In this document: one piece after another, positions 17,694-18,341 of the stretch | How positions within the stretch are numbered: the first letter of the stretch is position 1 | Layout of the letters: the number at the start of each line of letters is the position of its first letter | DNA from: Escherichia phage vB-EcoP-XT18 | Length of the DNA stretch: 64,000 nucleotides | Sequence record: OR757434.1 | Direction: 5' to 3' (one strand) | Notes under the pieces: model-generated | Told to the model about the DNA's origin: nothing | The model's input: the letters and a program-made list of their open reading frames with translations, nothing else | The model's database searches: none | Made by a program: the position numbers and the translations under genes

Positions 17694-18341
17694 ATGATGG
17701 CGAAGAAAACAACACCTACAAGATATCGAATTCATGGAATCCCTATTAAATACATCTCAAACTATGAAGAGTTTTACAGAGTGAACTGGAAAGTGGTTCA
17801 CAAGTTCTTCATGTACGATATCAGAGATTACCATGAAGCAGAAGATGTGGCACAGGAAGTGCTCTTGAACGCTTGGAGATTTGTCTTCGCTAAGCAGGAT
17901 GAGAGAGTCCTAGAGGACGAGAAAGACCAAGAGCATATGACTTATCGAGTCAAGAACATTATCTGGTCTATACGCTCAAATAGGCAGACTGTAGGAGACC
18001 GTCGTATCTACTCTATTCCAGAGGCTGATATGTTCCGTACTCCTGATATGGTTGATAGTCCTTTAGAGATTGCTATGGATAAGCAAGACTCTGTTGGTGA
18101 CCCATTCATGGAGTCCCGTATCTTCTATTTCTTCCAAGATTTAAGTGATACGATGGATACTCAGAAGTTAGCTAATATGTTCTCGATGATTTTCTTGGGT
18201 ATCCCCCATGATCACATCCAGAAAACTATTGGCATGTCACATGGAACTTTCTACCGTCGTTATGCAGAGTTAAAAGATCTGTATGAATACGTGGTAGAGA
18301 AGCACTTTGATAAAGAAGAATTTCAAGGATTGATTACATGA
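17694..18341 (+). CDS. phage sigma factor (ECF/sigma-70 family)
   Basis: region 2-like [15 protein letters not shown] and region 4-like [20 protein letters not shown]. Confidence 0.7.

Follow-up and report, generated by a model that had tools for sequence, protein, structure and literature searches.

The gp36/gp79 transcription system of phage phiEco32 was reportedly described by Pavlova et al. in 2012 (J Mol Biol 416:389). The phage-encoded sigma factor gp36 binds the E. coli core RNA polymerase, and the structure of the complex (PDB 9m7y) comes from a study of gp36 and gp79 (Xu et al., 2025, NAR; PMC12276001). gp36 has a sigma2-like N-terminal domain (residues 1-103) and a sigma4-like C-terminal domain (residues 138-214), joined by a linker that runs along the sigma3.2 path (PMC12276001). 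The N-terminal domain rests on the clamp helices and recognises AATGTA at positions -14 to -9, centred at -11.5; the duplex is read at A-14, A-13 and T-12, and unwinding begins with G-11. [quoted passage not shown] The C-terminal domain, placed on the flap-tip helix, reads the -35 region at -37G and -34A, with R187 contacting G-37 and Y186 the T opposite A-34, and mutations of contact residues or of contacted bases reduce or abolish activity (PMC12276001).

In the published accounts, six gp36-dependent promoters with the consensus tAATGTAtA lie upstream of phiEco32 genes 6, 13, 26, 40, 58 and 68, and transcription starts 6-8 bp downstream of the motif (PMC8948821, PMC4331800, PMC4281155). P13, P26, P40 and P58 all carry TAATGTATA, P6 carries TAATGTAgA and P68, the promoter in the cryo-EM open complex of gp36, carries aAATGTATA (PMC8948821, Table S3). 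In phiEco32 a second phage protein, gp79, removes region 4 of sigma70 from the RNA exit channel, so that host and early transcription are shut off, and it stabilises the C-terminal domain of gp36, activating P26 4-fold and P68 3-fold in vitro. A phage sigma of this kind and its six promoters have been known since 2012, and were explained structurally in 2025.

The late sigma factor gp55 of phage T4, with its TATAAATA promoter, is likewise a small, highly diverged sigma that relies on one strong -10 word and a phage co-factor; gp55, however, has no sigma4-like domain and needs gp33 and the sliding clamp, whereas the C-terminal domain of gp36 is sigma4-like and makes contact with the -35 region. 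In Salmonella phage 7-11, gp47 also steers the host RNA polymerase to late promoters, at similar genome positions, but it is only ~15% identical, its consensus is bipartite (GTAAtg-(16)-aCTA), and the phage has neither a gp79 homolog nor a middle class of promoters (Lavysh et al., 2022; PMC8948821).

The window and its sigma factor gene

The window, by which we mean the whole stretch of DNA analysed here (64,000 nucleotides), is in a blastn map ~64 kb collinear with the phiEco32 genome (NC_010324), reversed and circularly permuted; judged from this map it is a phiEco32-like coliphage (Gordonclarkvirinae) in reverse orientation. A megablast search with positions 15000-21000 returned 98 coliphage and Shigella phage records, the best being phage XT32 at 98.6% identity, with SU10 and others at ~91%. 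The window is without roughly the segment 50800-64190 of phiEco32 (~13 kb) and has a terminal-repeat junction near 50944-51115. The segment 50944-51421 has counterparts at either end of the linear phiEco32 genome (1-417 and 77042-77533), so that the window crosses a terminal-repeat junction, as it would in an assembly that is permuted or circularised. A tRNA gene at 61854-61925 (+; Rfam RF00005, 57 bits) lies in a region collinear with the part of phiEco32 that holds tRNA-Arg. A homolog of gp79 was not found within the window; the orthologous position (phiEco32 52601-52849) falls in the ~13 kb outside it. We infer the presence of gp79 in this phage from its relatives only, and the gp79 steps published for phiEco32 would presumably operate here as well.

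The open reading frame at 17694-18341 (+), for which the earlier note had proposed a phage-encoded sigma factor, is real and encodes 215 amino acids when counted from the first of two adjacent in-frame ATGs (17694-17699). The phiEco32 annotation and the PDB chain use the second, at 17697, and we place the gene, an ortholog of gp36, at 17697..18341 (+). Read from the second ATG, the protein shares 213 of its 214 residues with PDB 9m7y chain F (named 'RNA polymerase ECF sigma factor'; E = 2.6e-145), tblastn of phiEco32 gp36 against the window gives 99.5% identity across 17697-18338, and the protein falls in PHROG 1740 (phrog_1740), 'RNA polymerase sigma factor', at 6e-46. All 20 contact residues published for gp36 are kept, whether they face the clamp helices, the flap-tip helix, the -10 region (E79, H80, Y83, R84, W90, S91, S94 and N95) or the -35 region (Y186 and R187). 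Homologs of the sigma across the 98 phage records are all at least 79.6% identical.

According to the earlier note the protein has segments resembling sigma70 regions 2 and 4. A region 2 signal is indeed present, although Sigma70_r2 (Pfam PF04542) scores 19.1 bits, below the 24-bit cut-off; region 4, in contrast, is invisible to curated sequence models, and no Pfam match to it is obtained in the protein even at E = 10. The sigma4-like fold is thus known from the cryo-EM structure only. With group 4 (ECF) sigma factors the gp36 type shares sigma2-like and sigma4-like domains, a linker through the active-site cleft and a weak similarity over almost its full length to TIGR02937, the sigma70-ECF model (23 bits vs a cut-off of 42.9; alignment over residues 23-192). 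It differs from them in that it scores below all curated cut-offs, in its promoter word, which is unlike ECF promoters, and in the structure, which has a rotated first helix and, in the C-terminal domain, a shortened helix 4 (PMC12276001).

Within the middle-gene cluster, the sigma gene is preceded by a macro-domain gene and followed by one of the SLOG family, in the same order as in phiEco32 (blastn map and phiEco32 annotation). The gene that follows (18338-18730, +), annotated in records of relatives as 'chromosome segregation protein' or 'GTP-binding domain', gives a borderline YAcAr/SLOG-family Pfam match (27.8 bits vs a cut-off of 28.2 bits). For the sigma gene, many GenBank records from this group of phages give 'chromosome segregation protein' or 'hypothetical protein'.

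As for a gp36-type promoter of the sigma gene in the window, the candidate TAATGTTTA at 17622-17630 (+) was not counted, its core being broken at -9; it lies 63 nt upstream of the gene, within the macro-domain gene, in both the window and phiEco32. In the sister genus Suseptimavirus, TAATGTAAA, with the AATGTA core intact, is found 24 nt upstream of the sigma gene (SU7 33589-33597 (-); ECBP2 34361-34369 (-)), which hints at a possible autoregulation in that genus. A weak sigma70-like sequence, TGGACA-18-TGTAAT, is present in the window at ~17647-17676.

The nonamer and the mapped promoters

The exact nonamer TAATGTATA occurs five times in the window, at 9672 (+), 15868 (+), 26261 (-), 41858 (-) and 15796-15804 (-), against 0.75 expected, and a count of five was reached by none of 100 shuffles. 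All five copies lie in non-coding gaps, which has a chance of ~8e-5 at a coding fraction of 0.85, a fraction that is itself approximate, coming from a crude gene caller that weighs the ribosome-binding site in its choice of start codon. From the end of the motif to the next start codon on the same strand there are 36, 58, 38 and 33 nt at four of the exact sites, 39 nt at the variant at 4184 (+) and 11 nt at the variant at 49545 (-). The earlier observation is thereby confirmed for the exact word, and a placement 30-60 nt upstream of genes on both strands holds for five sites, though not for 49545 (-). The main coordinates given earlier are also correct; three needed adjustment, 15795-15803 being 15796-15804, 49546 being 49545-49553, and ~51058-51066 being 51062-51070.

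Near-matches are another matter. When one mismatch is allowed, the window shows no enrichment (19 hits vs 21.6 expected), so that near-matches carry no statistical weight alone and need independent support. The 'close variants' of the earlier note are therefore a mixed class: those at 4184 (+) and 49545 (-) are supported because they are homologous to mapped promoters, but the site at 51062 is not. The latter (TAATGTATT, 51062..51070 (-), with one mismatch, in the terminal-repeat region) is doubtful as a promoter and was not counted; phiEco32 has TAATGAATA there, and a core-intact equivalent was not found in SU7, ECBP2 or EK010.

Six of the eight sites proposed from the sequence prove to be the mapped gp36 promoters, in line with the promoter class, read by host RNA polymerase carrying the phage sigma, that the earlier note had put forward with reference to phiEco32-like phages. 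A scan of phiEco32 together with the blastn map pairs window sites and phiEco32 promoters one-to-one, in sequence and in position, down to the deviations TAATGTAgA and aAATGTATA. Three correspond to middle promoters. The P68 equivalent, AAATGTATA at 4184..4192 (+), matches phiEco32 46862-46870 and has a predicted +1 at ~4199, ahead of the gene 68 homolog (4232-4558). The P58 equivalent at 9672..9680 (+) is a copy of TAATGTATA, with a predicted +1 at ~9687 and a gene at 9717-10040. The P40 equivalent, a further copy at 15868..15876 (+), has a predicted +1 at ~15883 and is followed by the gene 40 homolog (15935-16681) and, after it, a terminator-like hairpin (16703-16720). The other three correspond to late promoters, all on the minus strand. 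TAATGTATA again forms the P26 equivalent (26261..26269; predicted +1 ~26254; gene 21801-26222) and the P13 equivalent (41858..41866; predicted +1 ~41851; then an HNH ORF at 41312-41824 and the gene 13 homolog at 40573-41349). The P6 equivalent, TAATGTAGA at 49545..49553, has a predicted +1 at ~49538, directly follows a terminator hairpin, precedes a gene at 49060-49533 and is invariant in five of five genomes. The same promoter sites are found in Suseptimavirus (SU7, ECBP2 and EK010), whose sigma is 80-87% identical.

Three of these sites have peculiarities of their own. At P58 (9654-9680, +) gene 59 is absent, and homology to phiEco32 restarts at 9671, 1 nt before the motif; four mutually unrelated sequences precede this promoter in relatives, so that P58 marks a recombination boundary between modules. 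At P13, the HNH_3 homing-endonuclease ORF (41312-41824, -; Pfam, 49 bits), inserted between the promoter and the gene 13 homolog, is not in phiEco32, and the junction sequence is duplicated; a further HNH_3 ORF lies at 14480-14953 (+). At P6 (49534-49553, -), where the annotated start codon follows the motif after only 11 nt, an AGGAG lies upstream of the predicted transcription start, so that the leader would be ~5 nt long and without a Shine-Dalgarno sequence. Either the P6 mRNA would be nearly leaderless, or the true start codon would lie further downstream.

Could the recurrence of the nonamer be due to chance in AT-rich intergenic DNA, or to a duplicated intergenic remnant, with no promoter function? 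The variants with up to one mismatch do occur at chance frequency, and P13 and P26 have the upstream word TAAGACCTA in common, which could reflect common descent. Five exact copies, however, are found in none of the 100 shuffles, all copies are non-coding, and the motif stays invariant while its flanks have been swapped for unrelated sequence at P58, P40 and the fifth exact site, 15796 (here called Pas). The promoters, moreover, are experimentally mapped in a near-identical phage, and we regard this explanation as effectively refuted. Nor does it seem at all probable that the nonamer serves a DNA-binding regulator as its operator instead of being recognised by a sigma. Operators can take the form of short, conserved intergenic words, and nothing more specific speaks for this; the cryo-EM structure, on the other hand, has gp36 residues hydrogen-bonded to A-14, A-13, T-12 and G-11, mutating either partner lowers transcription (PMC12276001), and the motif is asymmetric, with six of the seven sites (the six promoter equivalents and Pas) facing a downstream gene.

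A third alternative is that the motif is read, alone or additionally, by the host sigma70 holoenzyme as an AT-rich, -10-like sequence, and that the phage sigma is not needed. Such a dual recognition was suggested in the SU10 genome paper, in which sigma70-type hexamers were predicted at middle promoters (PMC4281155), and in the window a sigma70-like TAGATA-18-TATATT (9 of 12 positions) overlaps the site at 15796. A scan for sigma70-like promoters, however, gave three hits, fewer than in shuffles (6.3), and neither the invariant G at -11 nor the AATGTA core is typical of sigma70. In published work, in vitro transcription employs the gp36 holoenzyme, and gp79 shuts off sigma70 transcription yet activates gp36 promoters. 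We consider reading by sigma70 unlikely.

The best explanation, in our view, is that the window comes from a phiEco32-like coliphage whose gene at 17697-18341 encodes a gp36 sigma that would drive three middle and three late promoters, because the protein is near-identical to gp36, every contact residue is kept and the promoters are conserved site for site. On these sequence grounds we hold it to be almost certainly correct. The gp36 of the window would thus drive the middle promoters at 4184 (+), 9672 (+) and 15868 (+) and the late promoters at 26261 (-), 41858 (-) and 49545 (-). The idea that host RNA polymerase carries the phage sigma to these sites likewise agrees with what is published for phiEco32 gp36, and is extended to this phage by the near-identity of the protein and the conserved sites. 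Relative to phiEco32, then, the sigma differs by one residue and the six promoters agree in position, sequence and flanking genes; the differences are a DNA identity of ~90%, the absence of gene 59 upstream of P58 and the HNH endonuclease behind P13.

A weak second element in the -35 region

The promoters had been described in the earlier note as having a single element. This corresponds to the description current from 2012 to 2022 and is outdated, since the structure has contacts at -37G and -34A. For a view of the whole class, the seven sites were taken from 13 genomes and aligned by their motif, which yielded 16 distinct upstream contexts (less than 70% identity over -45 to -16). The AATGTA core (-14 to -9) is invariant in all 16. 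Upstream, an A is found at -34 in 16 of 16 contexts, a purine at -37 and another at -36 equally in 16 of 16, and a T at -38 in 14 of 16; because the contexts are not fully independent, these counts overstate the significance somewhat. Downstream, every one of the 16 contexts has a purine 6 nt after the motif, and this purine and A-34 agree with the published start spacing and contacts, respectively. At P58, where relatives have exchanged the upstream DNA for unrelated sequence on at least four occasions, G-36 and A-34 are the only invariant columns upstream.

The invariance of A-34 and the contacts seen in 2025 thus indicate that the promoter class has a weak second element. From the alignment, this putative element is T-R-R-N-A at -38 to -34 (for example, 4161-4165 (+) and 26288-26292 (-)), and it would widen the -35 contact known at P68 to the whole promoter class.

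Longer words are shared by pairs of promoters. The upstream element of P68, TGGTAGTAGATA at -38 to -27 (4161..4172, +), includes G-37 and A-34 and is invariant in five of five genomes; the same sequence, an exact match at P68 spacing, forms the upstream element of Pas (15816..15827, -). These are the only two copies of TGGTAGTAGATA in the window, and both are at promoters. TAAGACCTA occupies -38 to -30 in the same register at P26 (26284..26292, -) and at P13 (41881..41889, -); it has five exact copies in the window, two of them at promoters, and its enrichment at up to one mismatch is marginal. TAAGACCTA is kept in EK010 despite a diverged spacer, and P6 is without it.

Pas, a divergent seventh site

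Pas, the seventh site, is an exact copy of TAATGTATA at 15796..15804 (-), with a predicted +1 at ~15789; its phiEco32 equivalent is 36704-36712, on the plus strand. It lies back to back with P40, 64 bp away, in the long AT-rich gap between the gene 40 and gene 41 homologs, and points against the middle genes. Several observations suggest that it is functional. The site is conserved in all 13 genomes examined, from two genera, and its upstream element is kept as TGGTAGTA(G/T)AT at P68 spacing while the spacer has diverged. In L005, SDYTW1 and myPSH2311, ~120 bp are inserted between Pas and P40, and both sites persist, so that Pas is not part of P40. Pas is not among the six published promoters (PMC8948821, Table S3), and the accessible literature makes no mention of an antisense promoter in phiEco32, although the original 2012 promoter paper may differ in this respect; a bioinformatic study of 2015 scanned only the gene-direction strand of intergenic regions (PMC4331800). 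It is quite possible, if slightly short of probable, that Pas is a genuine gp36 promoter, unlisted in the accessible literature, that fires away from gene 40 and against the middle genes.

Downstream of Pas there is a non-coding stretch (15632..15792, -), for which we combined an alignment with RNAalifold. Along the minus strand, the 5' hairpin (15769-15792) comes first, and then a variable segment, of which there are two unrelated versions. The last part is a block of ~95 nt, nearly invariant in the two genera, with a GCAGG/CCTGC hairpin (15708-15722) and, beyond it, a long one of ~20 pairs (15638-15699). In the 5' hairpin, two pairs have compensatory changes, one of them with both CG to UA and CG to AU, and four sequences have a G-U where the plus strand would read C-A; the remaining hairpin pairs are invariant and so give no evidence for or against an RNA structure. 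Neither strand has a remarkable fold z-score (minus, -1.95; plus, -2.85). Read on the plus strand, the long hairpin has TTTTTAT directly after it, and it may therefore be no more than the terminator for the middle genes upstream. Rfam gave no match within 15350-16000, the tRNA at 61854-61925 being the only element in the window to pass the threshold, and a conserved ORF was not found downstream of Pas.

If Pas fires, its RNA would be ~165 nt or longer, with the 5' hairpin followed by the structured, near-invariant block. The product could be a phage non-coding RNA. By analogy with the primary origin of T7, transcription from Pas into the adjacent AT-rich DNA could also prime or activate replication. 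Possibly, Pas blocks read-through from the upstream genes once gp36 appears.

For this phage group, the value of the present analysis lies in the correct annotation of the sigma gene, and the new leads are modest: a weak -35 element that would extend across the promoter class, and a conserved, divergent seventh site. In a group of phages used for therapy and for transcription switches in synthetic biology, Pas may mark a regulatory RNA or a replication origin.
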